Assembly: GCA_050506795.1 (NCBI GenBank)
Contig: JBJHCF010000024.1
Span: 1 to 64,000, forward strand
Length of the DNA: 64,000 nucleotides
Direction: 5' to 3'
Source: Opitutia bacterium
GTDB taxonomy: Bacteria > Verrucomicrobiota > Verrucomicrobiia > Opitutales > T3Sed10-336
Shown here piece after piece: positions 26,057-64,000 of the stretch (position 1 is its first letter; each line of letters opens with the position of its first letter). The notes under the pieces were generated by a model that did not search any database, was not told the origin of the DNA, and saw only the letters and a program-made list of their open reading frames with translations. The position numbers and the translations under genes were made by a program.

Positions 26057-28834
26057 ATGAGTATACGGGCGAGCGGTGGATTCATTCAACAATTGGCACG
26101 GCGTGCGCCGGGGAGTCTTCATGGATTCCTTCTCCTTTTTCTTGCCCTGGCGAGCATTCCGCTTATCGCCCAGGCGCAGTGGAATAGAATCGCCAACCAG
26201 CCGGAGACGCTGGGATTGGGCGATGGGTATTTGGAATTCGATCTTCCCGGCTTCGAGCTGGAGTTGGTCAGCGCCTCACAGACCATCGCGGCTCTGAGGC
26301 CGAAAGGCGCGGATGGATTCGATTATACGCCTTCCGACCGCCTGGAGATCAGAAGCAGGAACAACCTCTATCATCTGGGCGACCTCAACCTTCGTTTGCG
26401 AATCGGCGAATCGCGGGAGTGGCGGGAGTACTCCACCGCGTCGGATCGCCGGCCCGTGAGTCAGGCCGATGCCGCCGGTTCGGTGCTGGCGGCGGCGAAT
26501 CTTGCCCCTACCTTGCCCGAAGACATCCCTTTGGAGGTGATGCGGTATTGGATACAGGAGGATTCGCAGTTGATTCTTCGGTTCGAACTCCGTAACACCG
26601 CCGCGCTTCCGGTGGAGGTCGGGTCGCTTGGCATTCCGATGATTTTCAACAATCTGTTGCATGACAAATCACTGGAGGAAGCCCATACCACCTGCGTTTT
26701 CTTCGATCCTTATATCGGTCAGGACGCCGGATACCTGCAAGTGGCCCGGTTGCACGGCCAGGGGCCGGTCCTGCTGGTCCTGCCCGATGGAGACACTCCG
26801 TTTGAGGCCTACAACCCATTACTGAACGATCCGACTCCGCGCGGCGTTATCTTCGAGGGGTTTCATGAGTGGATGGCCCACAGCAGGGCGCACGCGGAAG
26901 ACGACTGGAGCGAGGCCGAGCCCTGGAACCGTCCGACTTCCGTACGCCTGAATCCCGGCGAATCGCGCAGCTACGGGGTGCGCTTTGTTCTGGCCGATTC
27001 CTTGCGCGAGATCGAGTCGACATTGATCGCGCACCAGCGTCCGGTGGCCGTGGGAGTGCCGGGATACGTCCTGCCGCGCGATGTCCGGGGGCAACTGTTT
27101 CTGAATTACGGAGAGGCGGTGCGTTCCATCGACGTGGAACCGGCGGGCTCTCTGGTCGTGACGGAGGATGAGCCGACCCCGGGCGGATGGAAGCAGTACC
27201 GGGTCGAGGGGGCGGAGTGGGGCCGCTCCCGGCTCACGATCACCTATGCCGACGGCCTGCGGCAAACCATCCACTACCGGGTGATCAAGCCGGAGGGTGA
27301 GGTGGTCGCCGATATGGGGCGGTTCTTGACCACCGAGCAATGGTATGAGAATCCGGATGATTTGTTTGGCCGGAGCCCTTCCGTCATCACGTTCGATTAC
27401 GAAACCTGGAGTCATGTCCTGGAGGACCGGCGGGCCTGGATCGCCGGTCTCAGCGATGAAGGCGGAGCCGGTTCCTGGTTGGCGGCAATCATGAAACAGT
27501 TCGTTCAGCCGGACGCCGGGGAGTTGGAAAAGCTCCGGAGATTTTTTAATGAGACTTTGTGGGGAGGCATTCAGTACGCTGAAGGGGATCGCCGGTACGG
27601 AGTCAGAAAAAGCCTGTTTTTGTACGAACCCGACGAAATGCCGGAAGGCACTTACAGCGAAGACATCAACTACGGCACCTGGTCGGCATGGAATCGACGG
27701 GAAGCGGAATCGGTCGGGCGATCGTACAATTACCCGCACGTGGCGGCCGCTCATTGGGTCTTTTACCAGCTTTCCCGCAATCATCAGGATTATATCGAGG
27801 AGAGAAGCTGGGAATGGTACCTGGAGCACGCCTACCATACGGCCATCGCGATGGTCGAACAGGCGCCCTATTACGCGCAGTTCGGCCAAATGGAAGGGAC
27901 CATCTTCCTCATGATTCTGCTGGATCTGCAGCGCGAGGGAATGACCGAACTGGCGGACTCCATGGAAGCGGCCATGAAACGGCGGGCCGACTTGTGGGAT
28001 TCGCTGGATTATCCTTTCGGCAGTGAAATGCCCTGGGACTCCACGGGTCAGGAGGAGGTTTATGCCTGGTCCCGGTATTTCGGCAACGACGAAACCGCCG
28101 ATGTCACGCTGAACGCGATCCTGGCTTACATGCCCACCGTGCCCCATTGGGCTTACAATGGGAGCGCGCGCCGGTATTGGGATTTTGTATACGCGGGCAA
28201 ATTGTCGAGGATCGAGCGTCAGTTGCACCATTATGGCTCCGGACTGAACGCCATTCCCGTCCTTTCCGAGTTCCGGGCCAATCCGGACGATCTTTACCTG
28301 CTGCGGGTGGGGCATGCCGGGCTGATGGGTTCCATTGCCAATATTACCTATGAAGGGTTCGCCCCGGCGGCCTTTCATTCGTTTCCCTCAACCCTTCGTA
28401 TCGACGGTATTAACGGAGACTACGGTCCCGGCTTTTTCGGCTATGCCGCCAACACCGGAACCTATGTCAAGTATGATGAAGAGTTCGGTTGGCTGGCGTT
28501 CAGCGGCGAAATCGAAGAAAACGGAGCCTTGGTAAACGTCCGGCCGACCAACGCGGCGCGTTCAAGGGTGTATCTTGCGGACCTGGGACTTTGGCTGACC
28601 CTGGATGCCGGGCGGTTCGAACTGATTGAGTTCAATGTCACCAACGGCGAAGTCGCGGTGCATCTCGAGCCGGCAACCGCTCATACCACCCGGGCCTTGC
28701 TGCGGATTGAGCAGCCCGCCGCGGTGGAGGGGGTGGCAACTTTTGAAGCCGCCGGTTCTTTTGAGATCGAGAGGGGTGCGGTTGTCATTCCTCTGGGCGA
28801 TGAGGCGTCGTCGGTCGAGTTGAGGTCGCGTTAA
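26057..28834 (+). CDS. Secreted DUF5695-like putative glycoside hydrolase (paralog 1)
   Basis: Signal peptide ending AQA; RAWIAGLSDEGGAG, RSYNYPH, GSEMPWDSTGQE. Family assigned by motif recognition. Confidence 0.7.
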   Translation: MSIRASGGFIQQLARRAPGSLHGFLLLFLALASIPLIAQAQWNRIANQPETLGLGDGYLEFDLPGFELELVSASQTIAALRPKGADGFDYTPSDRLEIRSRNNLYHLGDLNLRLRIGESREWREYSTASDRRPVSQADAAGSVLAAANLAPTLPEDIPLEVMRYWIQEDSQLILRFELRNTAALPVEVGSLGIPMIFNNLLHDKSLEEAHTTCVFFDPYIGQDAGYLQVARLHGQGPVLLVLPDGDTPFEAYNPLLNDPTPRGVIFEGFHEWMAHSRAHAEDDWSEAEPWNRPTSVRLNPGESRSYGVRFVLADSLREIESTLIAHQRPVAVGVPGYVLPRDVRGQLFLNYGEAVRSIDVEPAGSLVVTEDEPTPGGWKQYRVEGAEWGRSRLTITYADGLRQTIHYRVIKPEGEVVADMGRFLTTEQWYENPDDLFGRSPSVITFDYETWSHVLEDRRAWIAGLSDEGGAGSWLAAIMKQFVQPDAGELEKLRRFFNETLWGGIQYAEGDRRYGVRKSLFLYEPDEMPEGTYSEDINYGTWSAWNRREAESVGRSYNYPHVAAAHWVFYQLSRNHQDYIEERSWEWYLEHAYHTAIAMVEQAPYYAQFGQMEGTIFLMILLDLQREGMTELADSMEAAMKRRADLWDSLDYPFGSEMPWDSTGQEEVYAWSRYFGNDETADVTLNAILAYMPTVPHWAYNGSARRYWDFVYAGKLSRIERQLHHYGSGLNAIPVLSEFRANPDDLYLLRVGHAGLMGSIANITYEGFAPAAFHSFPSTLRIDGINGDYGPGFFGYAANTGTYVKYDEEFGWLAFSGEIEENGALVNVRPTNAARSRVYLADLGLWLTLDAGRFELIEFNVTNGEVAVHLEPATAHTTRALLRIEQPAAVEGVATFEAAGSFEIERGAVVIPLGDEASSVELRSR

Positions 28835-28880
28835 GCTGTTTTGGCTCGTTTTAAACAAAGGTGAACGGTTGGAGACTCTT

Positions 28881-31800
28881 ATGAAAAACAATCGGATATT
28901 GGCATGGGTTTGTGTGGGCATAATGAGCGCAATGACTGGATCGGCGGAGGAGGCGGGGGATCAGATTCTCGACGGGATTGGCGAAACGGCGCTGATCGCG
29001 CGGTATCCCTTTGACGGCCATTTGCGGGACGCGTCCAGAAACGCGTATCATGCGAGTCTTCCTCCCGGGGAAAGGACGGGTTATCCCGAGGACGCGACGT
29101 TTGGAACGGTCCTATCGGCGCCCGGTGATAACGGCGGCTTTCCCAGGGTTCCCGGTGTGGCGCTGGCCTCGGCGGACGCTTTTTCGCTCAGCGGATGGTG
29201 GCAGGTCCGGGTTGATGGGGCTCCGGGTGTTTTTTTTGATTTTCGTTCCAGCGCCGGCGGACACCTGGGAGCGGAGTGGTTGGCGGACCGGTCGGTGGCC
29301 GTGCAATTGACCGCGAACGAGGGAGTCTATGCCGTCGATTCCGGCGAAGTTTCCGTTCCTGTGGGCGAGTGGGCGCATATTGCGGTGGTGTTGGATCCTT
29401 CCCAAAGAATATTGAGCCTCTATCTCAACGGTGAAAGGGTGGGGGCGACAGGTGATGTCGAGGTGCTGTTGGATGAGGTTTTCCCTCCGGATGATGCCGC
29501 CGGAAATCGTCTGTTTCTGGGATCCCCATCGAGAGTTGAAGGTGCCGACATAGTGAGACTGTACGATGTGCGGCTCTATAATATCGCGCTGGCGGACCAC
29601 GAAGTGAACCGGATTTTTACCGGAGTGACCGAAGGTCCGGGCGTCGACGATGCCGACGACATCGCCGCCGCCGATCGGGCGGCTTGGGCGATTGTGGCCG
29701 GGTTGCGCGGGGTTCCGGATATCGAAGTTGAAACGCGTCAGGGGCGCTTGCCCCACCTGCCGTGGTTCCTGCCGGGAGACTACGCCACCGGTCGTGAAGG
29801 GCCCCCCGTTCGGGTGATCTGGCCGGCGCCGAACGATATTTCCGCGGTGATGAACACGGGAGAATATTACCTGACCGGTACGGTTCCGGGTACCGACCTT
29901 CGTCCCCGGGCGAGGGTGTTGGTCAAGTCCTCCGGGGAGCCGCTGGCGGAACCGAGAACGGCTGACGGCGACGATTTGGGGATCGATTCGGGAGTGGTGA
30001 TTTACCGCGGAACAAGCGTCGATGGCGCGGGGCCCGGACGGGACTTGTATCCCTTCCCCTTGAACGCCGTACACCTGGAACCCGATGACCGGGGCGAACC
30101 CACGCCGTTCATGGAGAATCGGGACAAGTTCATCGACGGCCTGGTGGCCAGTTCGCCGGACCAGTTCCTTTACATGTTTCGTGACGCCTTCGGTCAACCC
30201 CAGCCGGAAGGCGCCGAGCCGCTGCGGGGCTGGGACGCGCGAACGGTCAAACTGAGAGGTCACGCCACCGGACATTATCTGACCGCCCTGGCTCAGGGCT
30301 ACGCGGGGGCGACCCACGACGACGAGGCGCGCGCGGCCTTGCGCGAGAAGATGGATTACATGGTGGAGGTCCTTTATGAACTGTCCTCCAAGTCCGGACG
30401 TCCCACCTCGGAAGGTGGCGAGTATAACGCCGATCCGACCGCGGTTCCGGTGGGGCCGGGAAAGGAACGGTACGATTCCGATCTTACCGAGGACGGCATC
30501 CGCACCGATTACTGGAATTGGGGCGAAGGTTTCATCAGCGCTTATCCTCCGGACCAATTCATTATGCTGGAAGACGGGGCCACCTACGGCGGGAGCGACC
30601 GTCAGATCTGGGCGCCCTACTACACCCTGGACAAGATTCTCAAAGGTCTGCTCGATTGTTATGAAGTGACCGCCGATGAAAGGGGGTTGGCCGTCGCAAC
30701 CCGCATGGGATTGTGGGTTTACGAACGCCTCAGGCCGCTGCCAGAAGATACGCTTGAAAGCATGTGGGGGCGCTATATAGCCGGGGAGTACGGCGGAATG
30801 AACGCGGTCATGGCCCGGTTGCATGCGGAAACCGGCGACGAGCGGTTCCTGGAAGGCGCGCGAATCTTTGATAATGTGTCCTTCTTTTACGGCGGTGCGG
30901 ACCGTCCTCACGGGCTTGCTCGTAACGTCGATACGATCCGGGGTCTGCACTCCAATCAGCACATACCGCAGATCATCGGCGCGCTCAGGATCTTTCGCGA
31001 ATCCGGCATTCCCGAATACTACCACATCGCGGAGAACTTCTGGAATTATTCGTATCACGCCTACACCTACAGCATCGGCGGAGTGGCCGGGGCCCGCAAC
31101 CCAAACAACGCCGAGTGTTATACCGCGGAGCCGGACAGTTTGTTCGCCATGGGCTTCTCCCAGGGGGGACAGAATGAAACCTGCGCCACCTATAATCTTC
31201 TCAAGCTAACCCGCGACCTGTTTATGCATAATCAGGACGGGCGTTACATGGACTACTATGAGCAGGCGCTTTATAATCAAATCCTCGCCTCGGTTTCCCT
31301 TGAGCATGCCGGCAACACCTATCACGTGCCGCTGAATCCCGGGGCGCGCAAGGGTTTTGGAAACGCGAACATGATCGGTTTCACCTGCTGCAACGGCACC
31401 GCGCTGGACAGCAATACAAAGTTGCAGAACTCCATCTATTTCAGAAACCGGGACAACACCGCTCTGTACGTTAATCTCTATATTCCCTCGACCCTCACCT
31501 GGGGCGAACGCGACGTCTCGATCAGGCAGGAGACCCGGTACCCTTATGGCGAAAGCACCCGGCTTACGGTCGAAGGCGACGGTGATCGCTTTGAGCTTTT
31601 CGTGCGAATTCCTGGATGGGTGGGTGAAGGCGCCAGTGTGACCGTAAACGGCGAAGCACCGGCCGGGGAAATGATTCCCGGGTCCTACCTCCGGATCGAT
31701 CGGGTCTGGACTGACGGCGACACGGTTGATCTGCACTTCCCCTTCGATTTCCGCCTGCATCGGGTTATGGATCGTCCGGACCTCGCCAGTATCTTCTACG

Positions 31801-32000
31801 GGCCGGTCCTGCTGGCGGTTGAGGAGGAGACGGCACTGTCGGACTGGCGCCGGGTGACACTGAATGTCGATGATATGGGATCCTCGCTGCAAGGAGATCC
31901 CGGATCGTTGCGCTTCGGTATCAATGGTTTGGGGCTGAAGCCGTTTTTTGAGTTTGGCACCGAACGTCACTCCGTCTATCTGAAAATACAGCCCGAATAA
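28881..32000 (+). CDS. Secreted GH127/GH146 beta-L-arabinofuranosidase with N-terminal LamG and Ig-like domains
   Basis: LRGHATGHYL, GEYGGMN, HSNQHIP, Zn/Cys motifs ETCATYN and FTCCNGT; LamG motif GEWAHIAVV..LYLNG; GGAG RBS before ATG 28881. Confidence 0.88.
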   Translation: MKNNRILAWVCVGIMSAMTGSAEEAGDQILDGIGETALIARYPFDGHLRDASRNAYHASLPPGERTGYPEDATFGTVLSAPGDNGGFPRVPGVALASADAFSLSGWWQVRVDGAPGVFFDFRSSAGGHLGAEWLADRSVAVQLTANEGVYAVDSGEVSVPVGEWAHIAVVLDPSQRILSLYLNGERVGATGDVEVLLDEVFPPDDAAGNRLFLGSPSRVEGADIVRLYDVRLYNIALADHEVNRIFTGVTEGPGVDDADDIAAADRAAWAIVAGLRGVPDIEVETRQGRLPHLPWFLPGDYATGREGPPVRVIWPAPNDISAVMNTGEYYLTGTVPGTDLRPRARVLVKSSGEPLAEPRTADGDDLGIDSGVVIYRGTSVDGAGPGRDLYPFPLNAVHLEPDDRGEPTPFMENRDKFIDGLVASSPDQFLYMFRDAFGQPQPEGAEPLRGWDARTVKLRGHATGHYLTALAQGYAGATHDDEARAALREKMDYMVEVLYELSSKSGRPTSEGGEYNADPTAVPVGPGKERYDSDLTEDGIRTDYWNWGEGFISAYPPDQFIMLEDGATYGGSDRQIWAPYYTLDKILKGLLDCYEVTADERGLAVATRMGLWVYERLRPLPEDTLESMWGRYIAGEYGGMNAVMARLHAETGDERFLEGARIFDNVSFFYGGADRPHGLARNVDTIRGLHSNQHIPQIIGALRIFRESGIPEYYHIAENFWNYSYHAYTYSIGGVAGARNPNNAECYTAEPDSLFAMGFSQGGQNETCATYNLLKLTRDLFMHNQDGRYMDYYEQALYNQILASVSLEHAGNTYHVPLNPGARKGFGNANMIGFTCCNGTALDSNTKLQNSIYFRNRDNTALYVNLYIPSTLTWGERDVSIRQETRYPYGESTRLTVEGDGDRFELFVRIPGWVGEGASVTVNGEAPAGEMIPGSYLRIDRVWTDGDTVDLHFPFDFRLHRVMDRPDLASIFYGPVLLAVEEETALSDWRRVTLNVDDMGSSLQGDPGSLRFGINGLGLKPFFEFGTERHSVYLKIQPE

Positions 32001-32080
32001 CGACGGCGGGACAGGTCGGTCGAATTCGAGGGTAGACCGCGGTCGGTAGGCGCGGAAATCATTAATTGAGGGGTACTGCT

Positions 32081-34840
32081 ATGCATTCGAGGAAACCTTT
32101 CCGCCATCTTTCGCTAATCGCAGGCCCGCTGATCGTGGGCGTCCTGGCGCAGGGGGCGGAAACGGGGCATCGATTCGAGCTCGAGAGCGACCGTGGAGCG
32201 ATCACCAGCCTGATGCATCGGGGGGATCGCTTTCCCACCGACTACGTCCGGCAGGGAGAACGCTTTGGCGATTGGGTGATCCAGGCGCGTGCGGGAGATC
32301 AGTCGGATTGGAACAGGATCGACACCGCGGCCCTGGTATCGGAGAACGCTGATCTTGAATCGCGCCACCAGGCGGACGGGACGTTCTCCGCCGCAGCGAC
32401 TCGAAGGGTCGGTGACGGTGAGCTCGCTCTTGCCTGGGGGGTTGCCTTGTCCGGAGATGACCTGCTCTGGAGGATCGAGCTGACCAATTCGGGGGAGGTG
32501 CCCGTGGAGATCGGCGATCTCGGCTTCCCCTTGCCGTCGAACTCCACCAACCACCCTAATTTTTCCCTTCGGGTCCTTCAGCATTCCCACATTGCCGGCG
32601 ACGGCTCGTATGTTTTCTGGACCCGTTGGACGACGGAACCGCCGTACCTCCTGATGTTGCCGGAGACAGGGACGGCGCTGGAATACTATCGGCGACACCC
32701 CGTGAGTGGGGGCGGCACTTCGCTCTACCATGCCTATGTTCACTCTCGCGCCCAGGAGGAAGTGATCGCGGGCGAGGGAGGGCGCTGGCGATGGGAGCAC
32801 ACTTCGGCGATCCTCGAACCCGGTGAAACCCTTGCCCGGGGATTCCGGTTGTCGTGGGCGGATGGGTACGACGATGTGCGCGCCCGCATCGCCGCGCACG
32901 GGTTGGTCGATGTCGAAGTGGCCCCCGGCATGACGGTGCCATCCGACCTGGAGGCACTGATCGCCTTGCGCAGTGCCGCGACCATTCACGGTGTCGAGCC
33001 CGAGTTCTCTGAGCAGACCGAGATCGAACTTCTGTCCGAGGAGGACGGAAAACACATTTACCGGGTTCGCATGCGACGTCTCGGCGAGAACACATTGACC
33101 GTGCATTTCGGGGAAGGGCAAAAACAGTGGCTCGAGTTTTTTGTTGCCGAACCGCTCGAAACGCTGATCAACAAACGCGCCCGTTTCATCGTCGAGCGGC
33201 AGCAGATCCGTGATGAATCGAAGTGGTACGACGGGCTGTTGAGCGACTGGAGCATGAAGGACGAAGTGCTCCTCACGCCGGATGAGCCCCACGACATTCC
33301 CGCCTCACGCAGTTACATGATCGCCAGCGACGATCCGGGTCTCTCGCGACCGGCGTTTCTCGCGGCGAAGAACGCCGAGTTTCCCGTTCAGGAAGAAGTT
33401 TCGGCGCTGGATTATTACATCGAAAACTTCGTGTGGGGCGGCTTGCAGATGACCCCGGAGGAAACCTACCCGTATGCGGTGTACGGGATTCCAAACTGGT
33501 ACGTTAACCGAAACAGCCCCGACCCGCGTCAGTACCGTCGCTCGCGGGTGTTTCGGGCGTACGATTATCCTCACATCATGCTAATGTACCACGGCATGTA
33601 CCGGGTGGCGAAAAATCATCCTTCGATCGAAACCCTTCTCACGGCGGAGGAATACCTCGACCGGGCATACCAGACAGCCATCGCCTTTTTTATCTATCCG
33701 GTGGAAGTTTACGACGGCCATCCGGCGTATCAGCACGAGACCGGGTACTTCAACGAGGTTCTGGTCAATCAACTGCTGGAAGACCTCGAGGCGACCGGGA
33801 GGGAGGATGAAGCTTACCGGTTGCGGCGGTACTGGGAAAAGAAAATCAATTACTTCATCGGCGGAAACCCGCGACTTTTCTATTCGGAATACGGTTTTGA
33901 CACCACCGGATTTGAATCCACCCACGCGCTGGCCCAATACGCCGACGCGCATGTCGACCGTCCGGCCGACCCGCTTTTGGCCATGGACGTCACCCGCGAG
34001 CAGGTCGACACCTTCATGCGCCACCAGATCGACCTGAACGTCGGCGCGCGGGGATGGCTCGAGCCCCACTATTACACCTACGGCTCCGACTACCGGAGAA
34101 CCAACGCGGGGTACCTCCTCAGCTACATGTCCCAGATGGGCGGCTGGGCCATATTGGATCACTCGCTGCATTACGCGGCCGATCCGCACGAGCACCTCAA
34201 GCTCGGCTACGGCTCCATTCTCAGCTCATGGGCCCTCATGAACACCGGCACCGAAGCGACCGGTTTCGGGTACTGGTATCCCGGGGAGATCAACGACGGC
34301 GGGGCCGGAGGCGGTTTCGAGCCCGAAGCGTACGGAAGCAACTGGCTGACCAACCCGCACAGCCGCGGTTCGTGGTATTACGGATGCGAAATCGACCTGG
34401 GCTTTTGCGGCTTTCTCCGCGCCGCCCGCACGGTGTTGACCCACGATCCGACCTTTGGTCCAATCGCCCTGGGGGGATCACTGGTGCGGAATGAACAGGA
34501 GTCGCGGGTCGAGCCCCGCGACGGAATCCGGCGCCGGTTCCACGTGATCCGGCCGGAGGACAACCAGCGCTTTCACCTGGAGCTGATCCAGGACCGTTTC
34601 GCGGCGGGACGGGAAATTCGGGTCCATCACGATCTCGATTATGTTGGTTTTACTTTGGAGCGGTCGGACGCCGCGCGGACCGAGGGGGAAATGACTCTAA
34701 GCGGATTGCCGGAAGGAGGGTACGAGGTGCACGTCGACGGAGAGGTTGTCCACGAGATCGATGTGGAGCCGCATGTCGCGCTCACCGTGGTTCTGGCGCT
34801 TGAAGACGAAAATCATGAAATTCTTATGCATAGGAAATAG
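32081..34840 (+). CDS. Secreted DUF5695-like putative glycoside hydrolase (paralog 2)
   Basis: Signal peptide; ASDDPGL, RAYDYPH, YSEYGFDTTGFE, LSYMSQMGG, which parallel the motifs of 26057..28834; GAGGGG RBS before ATG 32081. Confidence 0.7.
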   Translation: MHSRKPFRHLSLIAGPLIVGVLAQGAETGHRFELESDRGAITSLMHRGDRFPTDYVRQGERFGDWVIQARAGDQSDWNRIDTAALVSENADLESRHQADGTFSAAATRRVGDGELALAWGVALSGDDLLWRIELTNSGEVPVEIGDLGFPLPSNSTNHPNFSLRVLQHSHIAGDGSYVFWTRWTTEPPYLLMLPETGTALEYYRRHPVSGGGTSLYHAYVHSRAQEEVIAGEGGRWRWEHTSAILEPGETLARGFRLSWADGYDDVRARIAAHGLVDVEVAPGMTVPSDLEALIALRSAATIHGVEPEFSEQTEIELLSEEDGKHIYRVRMRRLGENTLTVHFGEGQKQWLEFFVAEPLETLINKRARFIVERQQIRDESKWYDGLLSDWSMKDEVLLTPDEPHDIPASRSYMIASDDPGLSRPAFLAAKNAEFPVQEEVSALDYYIENFVWGGLQMTPEETYPYAVYGIPNWYVNRNSPDPRQYRRSRVFRAYDYPHIMLMYHGMYRVAKNHPSIETLLTAEEYLDRAYQTAIAFFIYPVEVYDGHPAYQHETGYFNEVLVNQLLEDLEATGREDEAYRLRRYWEKKINYFIGGNPRLFYSEYGFDTTGFESTHALAQYADAHVDRPADPLLAMDVTREQVDTFMRHQIDLNVGARGWLEPHYYTYGSDYRRTNAGYLLSYMSQMGGWAILDHSLHYAADPHEHLKLGYGSILSSWALMNTGTEATGFGYWYPGEINDGGAGGGFEPEAYGSNWLTNPHSRGSWYYGCEIDLGFCGFLRAARTVLTHDPTFGPIALGGSLVRNEQESRVEPRDGIRRRFHVIRPEDNQRFHLELIQDRFAAGREIRVHHDLDYVGFTLERSDAARTEGEMTLSGLPEGGYEVHVDGEVVHEIDVEPHVALTVVLALEDENHEILMHRK

Positions 34841-34841
34841 T

Positions 34842-37800
34842 ATGGCTCGATCGACGGCATCCTGGCTTTGTCCCATATGGGCGCTCTTTGCTCTTTCGGC
34901 CGCCGGCGCCTCGCCGGCCGGTATCATTTACGAGATTGACACCGCTCCGGAGGAGCGGCTTGCCAATGCGTTTGTTCTCGGGGATTGGAGCCAGGGGGAC
35001 CTCGATGGCTGGCGGGTAATCGGCGGGCGGGGAGAGGTGCGCAACGGCGCGCTTCGGGTGATCCCGTCGGAAACCGGCTCTCCTTATGCCGCGATGGAAC
35101 TCGACGGTATCGAGGACGCGCCCGACCTTGCGTACGGTTTCCACAATTACCTGCAACTCCGGTTACGCCTTCCTCCGGGTGACTACGAATACGTCGCGGT
35201 CGATTTTGTCACGACCGAGCACGAAGGCTTCGCCGAGGACCGGCGGTTCCACATTCCCGGCGAGGAAATCCCCGCGGACGGTGGCTGGCGGGAGTATCGG
35301 ATCGACCTAGGACTGATCATCTGGTGGCGCGATCCGCTCACCGGGCTGCGCATAACGCCCCGCGGGCAGGCGGTCAGGGAGAGCGCTTTTGAGATCGACT
35401 ACGTCGAGATCGGCGACCTGCCGGGAGATGTGCTGCAAGTGAATACCGCTCTCAACTTTTTCGAAGACGAGACTCTTGACGATGTGAGCCGTGTTGAATC
35501 GAAACACTTCGTCGTCTGGTGGTCAGATTCGACCGAAGGCCGGTTCGATCCCGAGACTCATGGCCGCCGGGCATTGCGGATGCTTGAGGAGAGTTATCAG
35601 GTGTTTTGCAGATTACTCGGGTATGAGGACCCGTTTGAGCACACGGATCGCGCACAGCGGGATGGCACGCGCTACAAGCTTAATCACATCACCTGGTACG
35701 GCGGGTTCTGGATGGGCGGCGGGGATTTTACTTATTTCAACGTTCCGCCGGCAGGACTGCTCGACGAAGGTTGGGGGAACCCGGTGCCGCATGAATTCGG
35801 GCACGCCATCCAGGGTGCCCAGGCAAGTATCCTTGCCGGCGGGCATTGGGAGTCGCACGCGAACTTCCTGCGAGAGTACCGCACCACGTATTACGCGCCG
35901 TTTTTCCCTCCGGCAAATCGTTCCACCGTCGAACTCCACCCGCTGCGGCAGTCGAATTTCCGTCAGGACCATTCTCGCCTGATTTACGCCGATTACCGCA
36001 TTCACCTGGCCCTTGCGGACCACGGTGCGGCCTGGGGGCTCCCGTCGAATATCGACGCGGTGTTATGGTCCCTCGGCCCGCCGGAGCAGACCGTTTACGA
36101 ACGCCTTGAACTGGTGCTGCCCGAGGAACACGACATCAAAGACGTCGTCGCCAGCACGATTCGGCACTGGCCGATGCTCGACTTCGTCCACTCCGCGGAG
36201 ATCCGGGCGCACCGGTGGGCGAACGAAAGGGATCGGGCGTATTACGATTATATTACAGGTTCGCACCTGATTCCCGATGCCGCGGAGCCGGGTTGGTACC
36301 GCGTCCCCCTCGAACGCGCGCCGGAGAAGTTCGCGTTCATGTTTCATGAGATCGAACCTCTGGGGCCGACCGTGACCGCGACGCTGCGGGGATTGGAATT
36401 ATTCGCCGGCGACGAGGACTGGCGCTGGTGTTTCGTGGCCATCGACGCCGAGGACGATGCGCGCTACAGCGGATTGTCGGGACCGGGAAGGATGTCGTTT
36501 GATCTTACGGAAAGCGACAACCGGGTTTACATCGTGGTGGTCGCGACGCCGGGCGACACTTCTCTAAACCTGACTGATTTCAGTAATACCCGTCCGATCG
36601 GTCGCCATGTCGATCGGTTGCGCTACCCTTACGAGCTCTTCCTGGAGAACGCGTCACCGCTCAAACGTCCGCTGGACTGGACCAACGACGAAGGGGCGGC
36701 GCATCCCAATGGTGGAGGGTTTGTGGCTGCCACCGCCAGCGTTGATGAGACCGCGTACGTTGGTCCCAACGCTCGTGTGCTGGACAATGCGACCGTTCGG
36801 GGTGGCGCGAGGATTGAGGATTTCGCGGTCGTGGCCAACAACGCAACGGTCGAGGACCGGGCGATTGTCTCGGGGTTTGCTGCCGTGCTCGGCCGGGCGC
36901 GGGTTTCGGATGAGGCGCGCGTTCGGGATCGGGGAGTATTGACCCAGAACGCGCGTGCGGATGGGCATGCGCTTGTGGCGGGGCACGCGGTGCTGGAGGG
37001 AGGCGCGCGCGCCTCCGATCGCGCGATTGTCCGAGCCAGCGCCCAGCCTTTTGGAAACGGTCGGCTGACCGGATACGCGATTGCCGATTACGACTATTCG
37101 ATGGGCGACGACCTCGATGACGGCGTCCACTTCAACCATGTCCCCTGGGGAGGATGGTTCCGGGACTATTACAGTGCCACACAGCGCAAGCCGCGTGGTA
37201 TGACCGCGTCCTATCGCGTGGACGAGCCGGGAGGCGACCTGCTCTGGGACGAATTCGGGGCGCTTCATGCCCTGCTTCGCGGCAACCCCCGCCGGGTGGA
37301 ATCCGATTTTTTTGATCACCAGGTTCTGGAACTCAACGGGGTGGATCAATATGTGATTTTAGACCGGAGCCTGGCGGATGTCGCCGGAGCGACGTTTTCG
37401 ATGTGGGTCCGTCCGGCGGCCGGTGGCGACCGGGGGCCGCTGATTTCCTTGAGCTCCCCTGGAGGCGGGCACCTGCTGCTGGATCTCGGCGGGGACGATC
37501 GCGGACCGCGATTATCGCTCTCCCAGGGCGGTTCTTCTTTCCGAATTGAAGCTGGGCAGTCAGTTCCCGCGAACCAGTGGAGCCACATTGCCGTGACCCT
37601 TGGAGCGGACGAAGGCATCCTTTACGTGGACGGTGAAGCAGTCGCACGCGGTGCGCTGGATCTTCCGCTTCACACGCTTTTGGGTGCGAACGATTACAGT
37701 GCAGCCGAGGCGTTTTACCTCGGGCGTGACAACAACGGGCGCCTGCTCGCCGCCGCGCTCAACGATATGCGTTTCTATAACGCGGCGTTGACGCAAGAGG

Positions 37801-38339
37801 AGCTGCGAAGCGAGATGCATCGCTCGGGAGCCAGAATCGGGGCCTTCTTCGGCGACGAGGCGGCCGAGTTCGGCGAGCCCGACAGGACGGAGGAGTCCGG
37901 GGTTCCCAACGGGCTCGTGCGGATGCTGACCGCGGAGATCCGCCCCGACAGTTTCTCCGGCGGCGACTACTACCGGCCGATTCTCGACTCGAACGATGAG
38001 CGCAACGGCGGACGGCATGGCAGCGGTTTCGGGCTGATCGACGACCAGATTGTTGTCCGGCTCGATGGGCTGGGGTTCTGGCGAACTTCCGTGTCTGTGG
38101 ATCCGGCGAACTGGCACCGGATCACCGTTGCATTCGACGGATCCCGCGCGGCGGTTTACCTTGACGGCGAGCTTGCGGCGACGACCGAATACGAGGCCGA
38201 TCCCGATCGTTTGGCGGGAAAGAATTACCGTATTGGTTGGGGTCAGGGGAGCCAGGATGAGATCTCTCGCACCTACTTCCAGGGAGCGATTCGTGACCTG
38301 CGGATCTATGACCGTGTCTTCCGTCCGGCCGAGCTCTGA
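34842..38339 (+). CDS. Secreted Svx/AvrXca-like (DUF6055-like) gluzincin metallopeptidase with left-handed beta-helix and two LamG domains
   Basis: PHEFGHAIQ (35790-35804) with downstream WESHAN; HPNGGGFVAATASVDETAYVGPNARV followed by hexapeptide repeats; two WxH(I/V)xVT..YxDG LamG modules. Confidence 0.75.
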   Translation: MARSTASWLCPIWALFALSAAGASPAGIIYEIDTAPEERLANAFVLGDWSQGDLDGWRVIGGRGEVRNGALRVIPSETGSPYAAMELDGIEDAPDLAYGFHNYLQLRLRLPPGDYEYVAVDFVTTEHEGFAEDRRFHIPGEEIPADGGWREYRIDLGLIIWWRDPLTGLRITPRGQAVRESAFEIDYVEIGDLPGDVLQVNTALNFFEDETLDDVSRVESKHFVVWWSDSTEGRFDPETHGRRALRMLEESYQVFCRLLGYEDPFEHTDRAQRDGTRYKLNHITWYGGFWMGGGDFTYFNVPPAGLLDEGWGNPVPHEFGHAIQGAQASILAGGHWESHANFLREYRTTYYAPFFPPANRSTVELHPLRQSNFRQDHSRLIYADYRIHLALADHGAAWGLPSNIDAVLWSLGPPEQTVYERLELVLPEEHDIKDVVASTIRHWPMLDFVHSAEIRAHRWANERDRAYYDYITGSHLIPDAAEPGWYRVPLERAPEKFAFMFHEIEPLGPTVTATLRGLELFAGDEDWRWCFVAIDAEDDARYSGLSGPGRMSFDLTESDNRVYIVVVATPGDTSLNLTDFSNTRPIGRHVDRLRYPYELFLENASPLKRPLDWTNDEGAAHPNGGGFVAATASVDETAYVGPNARVLDNATVRGGARIEDFAVVANNATVEDRAIVSGFAAVLGRARVSDEARVRDRGVLTQNARADGHALVAGHAVLEGGARASDRAIVRASAQPFGNGRLTGYAIADYDYSMGDDLDDGVHFNHVPWGGWFRDYYSATQRKPRGMTASYRVDEPGGDLLWDEFGALHALLRGNPRRVESDFFDHQVLELNGVDQYVILDRSLADVAGATFSMWVRPAAGGDRGPLISLSSPGGGHLLLDLGGDDRGPRLSLSQGGSSFRIEAGQSVPANQWSHIAVTLGADEGILYVDGEAVARGALDLPLHTLLGANDYSAAEAFYLGRDNNGRLLAAALNDMRFYNAALTQEELRSEMHRSGARIGAFFGDEAAEFGEPDRTEESGVPNGLVRMLTAEIRPDSFSGGDYYRPILDSNDERNGGRHGSGFGLIDDQIVVRLDGLGFWRTSVSVDPANWHRITVAFDGSRAAVYLDGELAATTEYEADPDRLAGKNYRIGWGQGSQDEISRTYFQGAIRDLRIYDRVFRPAEL

Positions 38340-38357
38340 GCAACGAAAAAAAGGCGT

Positions 38358-40394
38358 ATGATGAAGAAGGTGACTGCAAGCTGTTCCTGTAAACCCTGGA
38401 CCGTGTTTCTGCTTTGCTGGGCGCTTGTGTTCTTCGGACACGCGGTGCCGGCGGAAGAGGTTACGTTTATTCACATCGGCGACACGCACTATGATACGAG
38501 CGGTGAGGATTATGAGGAAAAACGTGCCGCTCTCCGGCGGGCGATTCAAAAGATGAACGCCATACCCGGGACGCCGTATCCCGAGGACGTGGGCGGCGTG
38601 GTGGGTGAACCGATAGGTGTCTTCATCGTCGGAGATCTTACCGAGGCGAAGGAGTCGGACTTTGAAGCGTTTATCGAAGACTGGGGGCTTGCCGGAGGCG
38701 AAGGGCTCCTGGATTTTCCGGTCTACGAGGGCGCGGGTAATCACGACGGCCGGCCGTCCACCCACCCGAACGGTCACGTGCGTCGGGCCATCATCGAGCG
38801 CAACCCAAATCGCCCGCACCTCACAAGCCTCTCGGAGAATGGACTGCACTACGCAATTGATTACGGGAACGTTCACTTTGTGCAATTGAACGAATACGCC
38901 GGAATGGACGACGATGAACGCTATCCCGGGAATCCCGAATACAGGCGCAAAGGGCAGTCCTACGGCAATCCGGCTGAAAAGAGCCTCCAGTTTCTCAGAC
39001 GCACGCTGGAGGAAAACGTGGGCGACAGCGGCCGGCCGGTGATTCTGTTTCAGCATTACAGCATTGATGGATGGTCGCTTCACGCGTGGGGTAATTATCT
39101 GGCATGGTGGACCGAAGAGCATGTGCTTCGGTTGTGGGAAACGATTCAAGGCTATAATGTGATCGCACTGATGGTGGGGCACGATCATTCGCACCGGGTC
39201 AGCGAATGGAACGGTATTCCCGTTTACCACATGGATGCAGTACGCGGGTTCGCCGTGTACCGACTTCTTGGCGATGAAATGGTCCGCGTGGTTCGTAACC
39301 TGGAGGACGATACCTGGGGAGCGGTATCCCGCAGTTCGACGACAATCAATTCCTCGCCGCCTGCAGAAGTCGTACAGGGGCCGTATCTCGTGTATGACGG
39401 TGCCCCTTCGAGCATGACGGTCTTGTGGCGGACCGATCGGGAGGACGAGGTTGAGTTCCGTTGGGGAAGGGAACAATTCCAGTTCGAATTGGGTGAGGTA
39501 GAGATCGGGCCGCACGATGGGGAGAACTTTCTTTACCGGGTCGTCCTCGACGACCTTGAGCCGAACGCGCACTACACCTACCAGTTGCAGATCGGGGATT
39601 CCTACGATATCGGAATGTTTTTTAGCGCGCCGGAACCGGAGGCCGACAAGGTGAAATTCCTGGTGTACGGTTCGACCGCGACCGGTTTGGCCGAACTGGA
39701 GAACGTTTCCCGGGCGCTGTACGATCACATCTACGAAGACCCAGCCTACCATTCGATGCTTCTCCATGCCGGGAATTGGATCCCGCACGCCGAGGGGATC
39801 CGGGACTGGGATGAGTATTTCTTCTCGCGGGAAAGTTCCGTGCGGCACGCCCGGCATATTCTTGCGCGCCTGCCCATCGTCGGCGCCGCGGGGACTGAGG
39901 TCGGTGATCCGGCATTGTTCCGGGAATTGTTCCCTTACGATTTCGAGACTGGTATGTATTACTCCTTCCAATACGGACCCGTTCACGTAACCGTGATGGA
40001 TCCCGGGTCGGACTACTCGGAGGGATCGGCGCAGCATGCGTGGCTTGTGAATGATTTGACCGAGGCGACCGCACCCTGGAAGATCCTCGTCTACACCGGC
40101 GCGCACTCCTGGTCGGAGGAAGCGGAAGGAGGAGATCAGACCCGCCAGGTGCTGCTCCCATTGTGTGAAGAGCTCGGCGTGGACCTGGTAATCGATGGCC
40201 GTGCCGGCGGCTACCACCGGCAGAAGGCAGGTGAAATCGACTATATTCGCCTTGGTGCGGCGACCGATAACGAGGGCGATGATCCGCGCCGGATGTATTA
40301 TGGGGCGATCACGGTTGAGGGTCTAACAATGTCCCTTGAGGTCTTTGACGACACCCGAAATGCGCTCGACACGGTGGAGCTCTGGAAGGATTAG
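38358..40394 (+). CDS. Secreted calcineurin-like metallophosphoesterase fused to an FN3 + degenerate purple-acid-phosphatase-like domain
   Basis: Domain 1 has GDTH, GDLTE, GNHD, FQH, GHDH. Then QGPYL..MTVLWRT and a second MPE fold lacking the metal ligands. Confidence 0.85.
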   Translation: MMKKVTASCSCKPWTVFLLCWALVFFGHAVPAEEVTFIHIGDTHYDTSGEDYEEKRAALRRAIQKMNAIPGTPYPEDVGGVVGEPIGVFIVGDLTEAKESDFEAFIEDWGLAGGEGLLDFPVYEGAGNHDGRPSTHPNGHVRRAIIERNPNRPHLTSLSENGLHYAIDYGNVHFVQLNEYAGMDDDERYPGNPEYRRKGQSYGNPAEKSLQFLRRTLEENVGDSGRPVILFQHYSIDGWSLHAWGNYLAWWTEEHVLRLWETIQGYNVIALMVGHDHSHRVSEWNGIPVYHMDAVRGFAVYRLLGDEMVRVVRNLEDDTWGAVSRSSTTINSSPPAEVVQGPYLVYDGAPSSMTVLWRTDREDEVEFRWGREQFQFELGEVEIGPHDGENFLYRVVLDDLEPNAHYTYQLQIGDSYDIGMFFSAPEPEADKVKFLVYGSTATGLAELENVSRALYDHIYEDPAYHSMLLHAGNWIPHAEGIRDWDEYFFSRESSVRHARHILARLPIVGAAGTEVGDPALFRELFPYDFETGMYYSFQYGPVHVTVMDPGSDYSEGSAQHAWLVNDLTEATAPWKILVYTGAHSWSEEAEGGDQTRQVLLPLCEELGVDLVIDGRAGGYHRQKAGEIDYIRLGAATDNEGDDPRRMYYGAITVEGLTMSLEVFDDTRNALDTVELWKD

Positions 40395-42098: not shown

Positions 42099-42488
42099 AG
42101 TGATTGACCCTTTATCTGGTGATGGAATGTTCGTTTAACGCCAACGCGAAACGCGATTTAAGCCAACGGCTTCAAATCGTTAAGCTGGAATTTAGGGTTG
42201 AGTCAAGGACGCGCTTTAACCTCGTCCATACAGGGCATTTTATGGAATGCACTTGCTCCGGGCTTCGATTGTGTACATTAGTATTTTGCTAATGCTTGTC
42301 CTTATTAGTTGTTCGATATTTTTGCTGTAAGGCGGAATTAGAGAACTTATTCCTGAATCTCCGGTTGTTTGTGTACGTGAGGTATTGAGGGTGCTGATGA
42401 GATAGGCAATTCGACTGGCGGCGGATTGGTCGGCGATCCCACGACGAAACGCTCCCGGAAAACAAAAAAACTAAATTCAGCAAACTCT

Positions 42489-51098: not shown

Positions 51099-52805
51099 AT
51101 GACCCAACATTCCAAGCCTCCTCACTCATCCGCCACCCGGCCTTGCCTCGAAGGGGAAATGGCGGGAATGATCGCGCGCTTCACCCAGGACTGGGATTCG
51201 GTGAGCCGTTTCTATCGAATTGCCGCTTCCAGGGAGGACCGGGATCGCAGGCTTGCTTTTTTGGGTGATACGAGACGCAGCCTGGAGGAAGTTGCTTTTG
51301 ATTCACTGGGACCGGACGATCGAATCGACTGGATCGCAATGAGGGACTGGCTGGATGCGACCATTGCCCGTGAGCGTCAACGGCAGGTGCAGGAAGAGGA
51401 AATTGTGGACCTTGTGCCCTTTGCCGATCGGATCGCGGAACTCGCGCATCGGAGACGGAGTGCGGAGCGACCGGAAGGCAAGGAACTCGCGGCAATCCTT
51501 GACGCGATAAGAACGGCGACCGAAACCTGCCGGAACAGCATTACGGATCGGGCACCTGAAGGCGCTTCCCGCGAAATCACCCAAAAGGAGAAGGTTCTGG
51601 CCTTGAGGGCCTGCAAGCTTATCGTGAAGTTGCGGGCGGATCTTGAGGAGTGGGCGACGTTTTATCGTGATTATGATCCGGGTATCACCTGGTGGATCGG
51701 ACGTCCCTACGAAGCGTTGAGAAGCGCTCTGGACTCCTATGCCAAACGGCTGCGGAGTGCGGTGCTCGGGGAACAGGTCGATGGCAAGGGAGAGGAGCCG
51801 GTGGTGGGCGATCCGATTGGGCGGGAGGCACTTTTGAATGAACTCGCGGCTGAGTGGATTGCCTACGAGCCGGAGAAGCTGATCGAACTGGCTGAGAAGG
51901 AATGGGAGTGGTGCGAAAAGGAGCGGCTCAAAGCGGCCCGCGAGATGGGGCTGGGGAACGACTGGCGGGCGGCATTGACACGCATAAACGAGGACTATCT
52001 GCAACCCGGCGAGCAACCCGGTTTGGTGATGGACCTCGCCCGGGAGGCGATCGCGTATCTGAAAGACAATGACCTGGTGACGGTGCCGGAGCTTTGTGAG
52101 GCGACCTGGGAAATGAAGATGATGACGCCCGAGCGTCAGAAGGTTAACCCCTACTTTACCGGAGGTCAGACCATTAGCGTTTCTTTTCCCACCCAGGGAA
52201 TGAGCCATGAGGAAAAACTGATGAGTCTGCGAGGGAATAATCGGCATTTTGCCAGGGCTACCGTACAGCATGAATTGATTCCCGGACATCACCTGCAGAT
52301 GTTTATGTCCGATCGTTACCGTCCGTACCGGAAAATCTTCAGGACGCCGTTCTTTCTTGAAGGATGGGCACTGTATTGGGAAATCATTCTTTACGAAAAA
52401 GGGTTCCATCACACACCCGAAGGCCGAACGGGAGCCCTGTTCTGGCGAATGCACCGGGCGGCACGGGTGATCTTTTCACTGCGTTTCCATCTCGGTCAAA
52501 TGACCGCGGATGAAGCGGTTGCGTTTTTGGAGCGGGAGGTTGGACACGAGCACCGCAACGCGGTTGCCGAGGTGCGGCGTTCGGTATCGGATGACTACCC
52601 TCCGTTGTACCAGGCCGCGTATCTCATCGGTGGGCTTCAAATGCGGGCATTACGGGCGGAGTTGGTCGATTCGGGGAAGATGGAGGAGAAGGCGTTTCAT
52701 GATGCGATTCTGCAGCAGAGCTACCTGCCGATCGAGCTGTTACAGGCGGCATTGCGTGGCGATTCGCTGGAGAAGGACAGTCGCGGCCAATGGAAATTCG
52801 ATTGA
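51099..52805 (+). CDS. DUF885 family putative metallopeptidase
   Basis: VQHELIPGHHLQ, FLEGWALYWE, WRMHRAARV, QAAYLIG; no evident signal peptide. Confidence 0.85.
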   Translation: MTQHSKPPHSSATRPCLEGEMAGMIARFTQDWDSVSRFYRIAASREDRDRRLAFLGDTRRSLEEVAFDSLGPDDRIDWIAMRDWLDATIARERQRQVQEEEIVDLVPFADRIAELAHRRRSAERPEGKELAAILDAIRTATETCRNSITDRAPEGASREITQKEKVLALRACKLIVKLRADLEEWATFYRDYDPGITWWIGRPYEALRSALDSYAKRLRSAVLGEQVDGKGEEPVVGDPIGREALLNELAAEWIAYEPEKLIELAEKEWEWCEKERLKAAREMGLGNDWRAALTRINEDYLQPGEQPGLVMDLAREAIAYLKDNDLVTVPELCEATWEMKMMTPERQKVNPYFTGGQTISVSFPTQGMSHEEKLMSLRGNNRHFARATVQHELIPGHHLQMFMSDRYRPYRKIFRTPFFLEGWALYWEIILYEKGFHHTPEGRTGALFWRMHRAARVIFSLRFHLGQMTADEAVAFLEREVGHEHRNAVAEVRRSVSDDYPPLYQAAYLIGGLQMRALRAELVDSGKMEEKAFHDAILQQSYLPIELLQAALRGDSLEKDSRGQWKFD

Positions 52806-52934: not shown

Positions 52935-53090
52935 TCACTTGACCAGACCTGTCTCCGGCACCTCGATGGACACCCGCTGCCGATGCAGGCTCCAGCCGTC
53001 ACTCGTCCAGTGGGCCATGACCATTTCATCGTGGTCGATCTGCACGACGAAGAAATCGCCCGGCGAATTGCCGCGCTGGGCCGCGCCGTT
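52935..53090 (-). pseudogene. Start-less 3' remnant of a metallophosphoesterase-like gene
   Basis: Hand translation NGAAQRGNSPGDFFVVQIDHDEMVMAHWTSDGWSLHRQRVSIEVPETGLVK* with a double stop. It resembles the C-terminal strands of the MPEs at 38358 (GFAVYRLLGDEMVRV..DTWG) and 54480 (AFWYCRVEDEELVV..GW). Confidence 0.55.
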
Positions 53091-54442: not shown

Positions 54443-54479
54443 GGTTTGCTCATTTTGAGGATGACGTGTTGCGGATCAA

Positions 54480-55640: not shown

Positions 55641-55839
55641 GATATCTCAACCTGTTATCGTTTCTTGGCTTTCCGGAGACGAAGGACAAGGAATCATCTA
55701 ATATGGCACTGTCGCGCATAACTTCGATGCCGCAAAAACCATCAAACTCACATTGCGGAAACGCGGGAAACCCACTGATTAGGCATGAATGGAAATCCCT
55801 GCGTTCCAGGTTAATTTCGCGCGCTTTCGCCGCCGTTGC

Positions 55840-55869
55840 GTTTTAACCGGTTCTTCTTTCGCGTGTCAA
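55840..55869 (-). promoter_or_regulatory. Putative sigma70 promoter for the MPE-NPP unit
   Basis: Minus strand TTGACA-N18-TAAAAC, about 200 nt upstream of the ATG at 55640. Confidence 0.35.
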
Positions 55870-55960
55870 TGCTTTTGGGACTCTGTCGACGAAGTCCGAC
55901 GCACTCCTGGCTCCTTAAAGAGGAAAGGTGGGGAATGGCGAAACTACAGGGTGCCCTGTA

Positions 55961-63998: not shown

Positions 63999-64000
63999 CA

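Follow-up and report, generated by a model that had tools for sequence, protein, structure and literature searches.

A candidate secreted operon for digestion of hydroxyproline-rich arabinosylated glycoproteins in an Opitutia bacterium

We analysed a stretch of 64,000 nucleotides from an Opitutia bacterium (contig C24, positions 1-64000, hereafter the window), whose genome assembly comprises 4.94 Mb and is 97.8% complete. Positions 26057-40394 hold five genes, here called g1 to g5, whose products would together form the secreted front end of a system digesting hydroxyproline (Hyp)-rich arabinosylated wall glycoproteins, either of the extensin or arabinogalactan-protein (AGP) type or the hydroxyproline-rich glycoproteins (HRGPs) of green algae. 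We consider this reading well favoured by its computed basis, i.e., gene identities, active-site motifs, a PL27 fold, gene linkage, and gene fusions; the activities and substrates named below are predictions.

The five genes and their products

The five long open reading frames (ORFs) are intact, lie on the + strand, and fill the segment, each starting with ATG at its first coordinate in Table 1, with intergenic gaps of 46, 80, 1, and 18 nt in the order g1 to g5. They are bordered by trpS and a convergent gene of the major facilitator superfamily (Pfam). A basic n-region and a hydrophobic core are present at every N-terminus, and a rough hydropathy script detected no later transmembrane window; judged by these features, all five products are likely secreted. 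An earlier note, made from the sequence alone, had described five co-oriented genes with gaps of 1 to 80 nt and signal peptides, and this description was borne out. Pfam placed all five products in families, g5 through its purple-acid-phosphatase N (PAP-N) domain, with the metallophosphoesterase (MPE) motifs read from the sequence. Promoter and terminator scans of the operon gave hits at chance level (7 versus 5.6 and 11 versus 16.7, respectively), GC and GC3 gave no sign of its recent acquisition, and two soda-lake runs of one study contained only short pieces over the five genes, none of them across the whole stretch.

Table 1. Features of the operon and of the surrounding island (positions of the window, which are also those of contig C24; "contig" marks features reaching or lying beyond the window)
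Feature	Coordinates	Strand	Remarks
g1, DUF5695a, predicted secreted PL27-fold glycan-cleaving enzyme	26057..28834	+	PF18951, 1304 bits
g2, LamG plus GH146, predicted beta-L-arabinofuranosidase	28881..32000	+	GH127/146 catalytic and middle domains plus LamG (Pfam); best PDB match 5OPJ
g3, DUF5695b, divergent second subfamily, predicted PL27 fold	32081..34840	+	PF18951, 194 bits; AF2 model
g4, Svx-like DUF6055 gluzincin with hexapeptide beta-helix and two LamG	34842..38339	+	PF19527, 69 bits
g5, MPE	38358..40394	+	Intact N-terminal MPE domain, PAP-N domain, degenerate C-terminal MPE domain
2873-aa secreted protein, five lamin-tail domains plus CotH kinase domain	42426-51047	+	In island
DUF885 putative peptidase	51099..52805	+	Pfam; 42% identical to cluster found in 22/80 loci
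Phosphoesterase-type gene run	53090-58966	-	Alkaline phosphodiesterase family, g5-type MPE, unknown 634-aa protein, PHP/CehA-like metallohydrolase
Second g5-type MPE	54480..55640	-	Tat-like signal
Unnamed duplicated HExxH zincin-like protein	59175..60779	+	No Pfam match; 39% identical to cluster in 10/80 loci
AbgT-family transporter	60811-62385	+	Convergent with putative Hyp cluster; possible Hyp-peptide importer
Aldehyde dehydrogenase (putative alpha-ketoglutarate semialdehyde dehydrogenase)	62589..64000	-	51% identical to cluster in 12/80 loci
Putative Hyp catabolic cluster	contig 62589-68208	-	Aldehyde dehydrogenase, DapA-like, Cys/Cys proline-racemase family, AraC, D-amino acid dehydrogenase
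Proline-racemase-family gene	contig 65105-66073		Putative 4-hydroxyproline 2-epimerase type
Third g5-type MPE	contig 70702-71973		
GH142-like enzyme	contig 75045-77582		5MQR, E of 8e-98
DPP-IV	contig 77925		Orthologue of recurrent DUF5695 neighbour

Both DUF5695 proteins, g1 and g3, clear the PF18951 gathering threshold of 25.2 bits, share 23% identity with each other, and differ in their closeness to the family profile (Table 1); the nearest relatives of g1 are mostly Bacteroidales, with identities of up to 77%. A single-sequence PDB search gave no match for g1. The AF2 model of mature g3 (117-row alignment, pLDDT 90, pTM 0.92) matched the PL27 enzyme BACCELL_00875 (5NO8) with a Foldseek E of 4e-29 and a VIA Z of 31.2 (rmsd 2.9 over 629 residues, 19% identity in the structural alignment), while the next unrelated entry had a Z of 20, and the DUF5695 profile reached PL27 by sequence too (E of 2e-10). 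As modelled, DUF5695b has the PL27-type beta-sandwich plus (alpha/alpha)6 barrel, and the g3 model suggests the same fold for g1. GH121 and GH142 had been considered as analogues of DUF5695 by fold; neither was among the 50 matches listed, which does not by itself exclude kinship.

When g1 and g3 were aligned with 40 members of each subfamily picked at random, 62 columns proved near-invariant in both subfamilies, including g1 D467, E489, R555, Y557, Y559, H561, E657, D661, and E666. The R-x-Y-x-Y stretch aligns with PL27, g1 R555 standing opposite PL27 R447, which we take to be an active-site residue, and it is the only stretch that could be aligned in this way. DUF5695 thus resembles PL27 (BACCELL_00875, 5NO8/5NOK, and BT0263) in its fold and in this stretch, and the PL27 substrate is itself the glycan of an HRGP (an AGP), but it has an extra C-terminal beta domain of ~130 residues and the invariant acidic residues. 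PL27 is an L-rhamnose-alpha-1,4-D-glucuronate lyase acting on AGPs, as described in PMC8377490, whereas the genes adjoining DUF5695 and those fused to it suggest arabinose and galactose rather than rhamnose/glucuronate. Of ten long DUF5695a matches, nine are fusions, to GH51 (5), GH127/146 (3), or GH27 (1), and one protein, P0271, unites DUF5695, LamG, and GH127/146 domains, i.e., g1 plus g2. Cleavage of a glycan by DUF5695 is very probable. The invariant acids and the company the family keeps incline us slightly to a hydrolase, and a lyase is a considerably less likely option.

In three Gemmatimonadota loci (L028, L029, and L040), DUF5695b is joined to a prolyl isomerase domain of the cyclophilin type (Pfam on L029) and has a proline-racemase-family gene and araBAD as neighbours, an arrangement that would suit a polyproline-rich substrate. 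A fungal (Colletotrichum) DUF5695 protein, P0280, is fused to PF06985, and the literature searches on DUF5695 and DUF6055 listed fungal work only.

For g2, the family label GH127/146 given by the earlier note held, and the PDB ranking narrowed it to GH146: 5OPJ (BT0349) matched with E of 9e-59 and 8K7Y (Bll3HypBA1) with 4e-30, the GH127 chains being lower (7e-22 to 1e-19). By sequence, then, g2 is a member of GH146 rather than GH127 and a predicted beta-L-arabinofuranosidase. Its catalytic and zinc-binding residues are intact (E745, E766, C768, C836, and C837; E745 was placed by motif spacing, the HMMER alignment being shifted at that point), and the motif is kept in 41 of 41 LamG-type orthologues. 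The same catalytic Glu and Zn-binding Glu/Cys/Cys-Cys occur in BT0349 (5OPJ), Bll3HypBA1 (8K7X/8K7Y), XeHypBA1, and Bll4HypBA1, and the catalytic Glu and the Zn-binding E-x-C and C-C were found essential in GH146 (PMC10850190). The LamG module is present in Bll3HypBA1 as well; otherwise g2 belongs to a separate LamG-GH146 group and is ~59% identical to the orthologues lying beside DUF5695a. Hydrolysis of Araf-beta-Hyp has been described for the Xanthomonas GH146 and Bll4HypBA1 (PMC10850190; for Xanthomonas also PMC6085000).

In g4, the motif H317-E318-x-x-H321 followed by E337 has the gluzincin spacing HExxH(8-28)E, and a Hexapep domain match (Pfam) comes after it. Among the 150 best homologues, of which 125 aligned over the motif, HExxH is kept in 124/125 and the third Glu in 109/109. 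Secretion and the order of HExxH(8-28)E and hexapeptide beta-helix are shared with Svx/AvrXca of Pectobacterium (NF040510; PMC9266454, PMC13164431), but g4 is about twice as long, with an N-terminal module and two LamG domains, has a spacing of 15 versus 22, and sits in a catabolic operon. Against NF040510 it scored 138 bits (E of 3e-40), far below the equivalog cut-off of 625, and was therefore filed as Svx-like DUF6055 and not as Svx; the layout described by the earlier note (HEXXH peptidase, beta-helix, LamG), set there beside that of Svx/AvrXca-type peptidases, is present. None of 23 long g4 homologues scanned was fused to a glycosidase catalytic domain, and most had LamG. Pectobacterium Svx has been reported to degrade carrot extensin while sparing mucin and concanavalin A, its beta-helix domain being required for the extensin cleavage (PMC13164431, 2026). 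By analogy, g4 would likely cleave an HRGP. A protein with three DUF6055 domains, P0136, was also found.

The only Pfam match of g5 is the PAP-N domain, which sits between two MPE-like domains. The N-terminal one bears all five MPE motifs (DTH/GD/GNHD/H/GHDH), of which D, GD, GNH, H, and GH are invariant across 58 alignment rows, and the C-terminal one has lost the metal ligands. At E of 0.01, g5 itself had no match to PF00149, which its relatives do match. The tyrosine-ligand motif of purple acid phosphatases is GDxxY; the g5 N domain reads GDLTE, and the tyrosine is absent. A single-sequence PDB search returned nothing for the N domain, and ESM Atlas gave only unnamed or generic Metallophos clusters.

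As to its context, the MPE was found in only 2 of 60 DUF5695 genomes (G301 and G302), in both of which it directly precedes DUF5695b, and the g5-type MPE is an accessory part of the module. At L008 it lies between two GH127 genes, adjoining DUF5695a; two out of 106 long homologues carry a fused GH142-like enzyme that is 50 to 53% identical to the one encoded in the island described below; and a search with an MPE-only profile over 250 genomes of the order of G302 gave three new matches, one a few bases after AraR-AraD-GH127, one ~10 kb from DUF6055-GH43-GH51, and a weak one (G819) in a galactosidase cluster. The three strong g5-type copies of the host genome are all on contig C24, inside ~1% of the genome. 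Since the subfamily is fused to GH142-like enzymes or adjoins GH127, an arabinose-phosphate target is plausible, and that g5 acts on arabinose-linked phosphate may be called an even prospect. For g5 alone, a substantial competitor, at a little below even, is that it scavenges phosphorus as a periplasmic or secreted phosphatase of general function and plays no part on the glycoprotein. Its rarity among DUF5695 genomes speaks for scavenging, as do a full-length orthologue (59% identity) among unrelated genes (L137/L138), several long homologues fused to PhoD_N/PAP-N domains, the weak match G819, and the presence of other phosphatases in the island; the GH142-like fusions, two of the three new matches, the L008 arrangement, and the confinement of the three copies to one small part of the genome speak against it. 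A g5-type MPE with a dockerin, P0350, was also seen.

The company of DUF5695 in other genomes

A scan of GTDB representatives yielded 277 confirmed g1 relatives, and the neighbourhoods of the best 80, mostly from Bacteroidota plus four Gemmatimonadota, were examined. The 916 ORFs of these loci were clustered and labelled from one representative per cluster (28 representatives). Within 10 kb of DUF5695a, GH146 occurred in 59 of the 80 loci, DPP-IV in 43, the proline-racemase family in 24, GH127 in 23, DUF885 and GH43 in 22 each, D-amino acid dehydrogenase in 21, GH51 and AraB in 19 each, SusC in 16, DUF6055 in 15, a DapA-like protein in 13, aldehyde dehydrogenase and AraA in 12 each, GH97 in 6, DUF5695b in 5, and MPE in 1. 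Arabinofuranosidases were thus the commonest neighbours (64/80 loci), and an arabinofuranosidase, a Hyp gene, and a peptidase were jointly present in 24/80. The racemase-family neighbours had the C-terminal catalytic Cys in 24/24 and the N-terminal Cys in 23/24 (one ORF call is short). These genes are accompanied by those for the dehydrogenase, the DapA-like protein, and aldehyde dehydrogenase, an arrangement matching the known Hyp pathway.

The linkage was then measured in 50 of the 80 genomes, picked for long contigs and genus spread, after ten weak DUF6055 rows (E of 1.9e-9 or worse) and two weak racemase rows had been dropped. The racemase family was present in 43/50 genomes, 27 of which had it no more than 30 kb from DUF5695a (random expectation 0.55); strong DUF6055 was present in 24/50 and within 10 kb in 16 (0.14 expected). 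As a control we used 300 evenly drawn Bacteroidota, not picked by g1 similarity and with the centre genome removed, of which 10 carried DUF5695. The racemase family occurred in seven of these ten carriers (five within 13 kb) versus 49/290 others (Fisher P of 4e-4), and DUF6055 in four (three within 9 kb) versus 4/290 others (Fisher P of 4e-5); many Hyp-linked loci belong to Flagellimonas/Allomuricauda kin and are non-independent, so that these counts and P values overstate the association.

Two loci illustrate the combination. The Flavobacterium locus G347 has the order GH146, DUF5695a, GH43, GH97, DUF6055, M24, DPP-IV, M1, AraC, DapA-like, aldehyde dehydrogenase, racemase family, DPP-IV, DUF885, dehydrogenase, permease, M61, SusC, and SusD. 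In G302 (Bacteroidales), two SusC/SusD-type pairs, three sulfatases, GH31, an unknown, GH127/146, GH95, MPE, DUF5695b, DUF6055, DPP-IV, GH146, DUF5695a, GH146, and an M6-like gene follow one another. All five gene types are thus in one SusC/D locus in G302, and likewise in G301 across a contig break; therefore, the module is normally a polysaccharide utilization locus (PUL). The statement of the earlier note that the operon is not a Bacteroidetes-style PUL is correct for this host, which has no SusD and, on C24, no TonB receptor, and does not extend to Bacteroidota, where orthologous genes lie in SusC/SusD loci (SusC within 10 kb in 16/80; G302 and G347). The co-occurrence of DUF5695 with GH146 and DUF6055 is recurrent, while that with MPE is rare; the five genes, taken by the earlier note as one unit, are not a fixed set, for besides the 2/60 count for MPE, g1 is eroded in a relative of the same genus.

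The neighbourhoods also bear on what the target may be. If DUF5695a and DUF5695b were PL27-like lyases on uronic-acid-capped side chains, the target would be the type II arabinogalactan of AGPs (gum-arabic type), still an HRGP and not extensin arabinosides. PL27, which acts on AGP caps (PMC8377490), is indeed the sole close fold match (Z of 31 versus 20 for the next), the R-x-Y-x-Y stretch aligns with R447, and one GH146, Bll3HypBA1, acts on AGP (PMC10850190). This possibility is nonetheless unlikely: arabinofuranosidases, alpha-galactosidases, and prolyl peptidases recur beside DUF5695, the 28 cluster representatives scanned included neither a galactanase nor an unsaturated-uronyl hydrolase, and the invariant acids D467, E657, D661, and E666 are as in hydrolases. 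It is hardly credible, in turn, that the peptidase and Hyp genes serve animal collagen with the glycosidases as unrelated passengers. DPP-IV, M24, and Hyp catabolism fit collagen too, but collagen carries no arabinose, yet arabinofuranosidases are present at 64/80 loci. Svx, moreover, prefers extensin and spares mucin (PMC13164431).

The island around the operon

The candidate system reaches well past 26057-40394. Beyond the operon, contig C24 carries orthologues of recurrent DUF5695 neighbours 11 to 40 kb downstream (Table 1), the whole island spanning 54 kb, or 1.1% of the genome. Within its putative Hyp catabolic cluster, the racemase-family gene encodes MCIHG and DRSPCGTG, the Cys/Cys catalytic pair, and is putatively of the 4-hydroxyproline 2-epimerase type. 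An epimerase, a D-amino acid dehydrogenase, a DapA-like deaminase, and an aldehyde dehydrogenase make up the known layout of the Hyp pathway. The rest of the genome contributes araBAD, genes for GH51, GH43, GH127, and GH146, and a further three DUF6055 proteins; SusD is absent from the genome as assembled (97.8% complete), and the TonB receptors, none of which is on C24, number six elsewhere.

DUF5695 was not found in 300 other genomes of the host phylum and was present in 1 of 40 relatives, the same-genus genome G651. There, g2-g5 are kept in place with 87 to 94% identity, g1 is reduced to a 160-nt remnant (G651:C19:57561-57721), and another DUF5695a lies beside a GH127. In a quick, midpoint-rooted tree made without a clade test, g1 grouped with eight Bacteroidales sequences (SH-aLRT 96); since this grouping fits transfer, the module was probably taken over from Bacteroidales, the direction being inferred.

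One might see in all this a mosaic catabolic island, i.e., pectic arabinan/RG-II enzymes, general secreted proteases, and phosphate scavengers that share no substrate. GH146 BT0349 and GH142 BT1020 are pectin enzymes, the island also has an alkaline phosphodiesterase, a PHP protein, and a CotH/lamin-tail protein, and the erosion of g1 in G651 and the lack of DUF5695 matches in the 300 other genomes of the phylum are in line with it. We regard it as quite improbable, given that the same combination recurs in loci of Flavobacteriaceae, Cytophagaceae, Prolixibacteraceae, Bacteroidales, and Gemmatimonadota, and that fusions tie DUF5695 and MPE to arabinofuranosidases.

Several further features of the island and genome deserve mention. 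The CotH/lamin-tail protein is syntenic in G651 (88%), where a second copy stands beside the other DUF5695a. The gene run at 53090-58966 may belong to this system as its module for phosphate esters, or may serve phosphorus scavenging. The zincin-like protein at 59175-60779 consists of two similar halves with HExxH in the first only, its recurrent DUF5695-side orthologues being single-domain, and is a candidate further HRGP peptidase. On another contig (G000:C1:279957-290574, L089), a 961-aa protein that matched nothing in Pfam or the PDB is 46% identical to the unknown of the sulfatase locus in G301/G302. It has a third DUF6055 peptidase nearby and, at a greater distance, a GH120-like gene, and is a candidate new carbohydrate-active enzyme. 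A very distant DUF5695-like protein of 1800 aa (71 bits) is encoded at G000:C34:14890-20502 (L090), convergent with a GH127 gene; a similar protein comes right after the DUF5695a of G651, and a single-sequence PDB search with the C34 protein as a bridge to PL27 gave nothing.

Proposed pathway, known systems, and significance

The digestion of HRGPs is favoured because genera far apart from one another have these families physically linked to araBAD, prolyl peptidases, and Hyp catabolism, because DUF5695 is fused to GH146, GH51, and GH27, and because Svx is reported to cleave extensin (PMC13164431). The single Hyp-arabinosylated glycoprotein substrate put forward by the earlier note thus received partial, computed support from the linkage, the fusions, and the Svx precedent. 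Besides the kinship among the Hyp-linked loci, the sub-threshold Svx score of g4, and the contexts of g5 given above, the following weigh against it: within 10 kb of DUF5695a, 9 of the 80 loci have no labelled neighbour at all and 54 have no Hyp gene; three DUF5695b genes (L125, L127, and L128) likewise lack any labelled neighbour, and two more are in other contexts; PL27, the sole characterised fold relative, requires uronic acid, which is absent from extensin arabinosides; g2 shares only ~30% identity with characterised GH146s, and BT0349, which it matched best in the PDB, comes from a pectin (rhamnogalacturonan I, RG-I) locus; in non-plant bacteria, Svx-like proteins may differ in function (PMC9266454); and the Hyp cluster is 22 to 28 kb from g5, on the opposite strand.

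In the pathway we propose, GH43 and GH51 encoded elsewhere in the genome, with both DUF5695 enzymes, would shorten or release the Hyp-linked arabino-glycans, and g2, together with GH127 and the GH142-like enzyme, would strip beta-L-arabinofuranose down to the last Araf-Hyp. The g5 MPE would take off phosphate esters that block the exo-arabinofuranosidases. The Ser-Hyp-rich glycosylated rod would be cut by g4, steered by its beta-helix and LamG modules, and the resulting peptides would be broken down by DPP-IV, DUF885, and the unnamed zincin. Hyp would then be converted to 2-oxoglutarate by the epimerase, D-Hyp dehydrogenase, deaminase, and semialdehyde dehydrogenase, and AraBAD would take up the arabinose branch. 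As for the phosphate, Volvox pherophorin glycans are described as sulfated, with arabinose-arabinose phosphodiesters that possibly cross-link them (PMC9818292). The MPE and the sulfatases would fit such a substrate, which is no proof; the opening of Volvox-type phosphodiester bridges by the MPE is a hypothesis, better founded now than from the sequence alone.

Among known systems, the hyp cluster of Bifidobacterium longum comprises GH43 HypAA, GH121 HypBA2, GH127 HypBA1, and an ABC importer (PMC7263609), and that of Xanthomonas xeHypBA1/BA2/AA and an adjacent prolyl oligopeptidase pseudogene (PMC6085000). Both share with the present operon beta-L-arabinofuranosidases for Hyp-linked arabino-oligosaccharides and, as described in these sources, strip the glycan only, whereas here DUF5695a/b, the Svx-like endopeptidase, DPP-IV/DUF885, putative Hyp catabolism, and the MPE are added. 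The GH121 of the Bifidobacterium cluster has no counterpart seen in this operon; no genome-wide GH121 search was made. In literature searches on hydroxyproline, extensin, GH146, epimerase, and green-algal themes, none of the titles and abstract openings listed described such a locus type, some members of which may already be listed in CAZy/PULDB supplement tables. What appears new is the link of the MPE to beta-L-arabinofuranosidases, the presence of all five gene types in one PUL that also has sulfatases, and the move of the module to a host lacking Sus proteins.

More speculatively, and on balance improbably, the operon may be the algal-wall form of a widespread undescribed HRGP-utilisation system, in which DUF5695a/b would be a new CAZy family on Hyp-linked glycans, g4 would carry Svx-type glyco-guided proteolysis beyond plant pathogens to decomposers in the environment, and the g5 subfamily, together with the G301/G302 sulfatases, would be the first enzyme to open arabinose-5-phospho-5-arabinose bridges in the wall glycoproteins of volvocine algae.

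Plant walls have HRGPs as a major structural component, and the walls of volvocine green algae consist mainly of them; the bacterial systems described for them in the literature searched cover the sugar side only (Bifidobacterium and Xanthomonas) or a single protease (Svx). Together with its Bacteroidota orthologues, the locus offers a complete pathway that can be put to the test, leading from the glycan through the backbone to hydroxyproline, and candidate substrates for three unassigned families, DUF5695, DUF6055, and the g5-type MPE. The enzymes would serve in HRGP glycan sequencing, in tests of phosphodiester cross-links in algal walls, and in the opening of microalgal cells.

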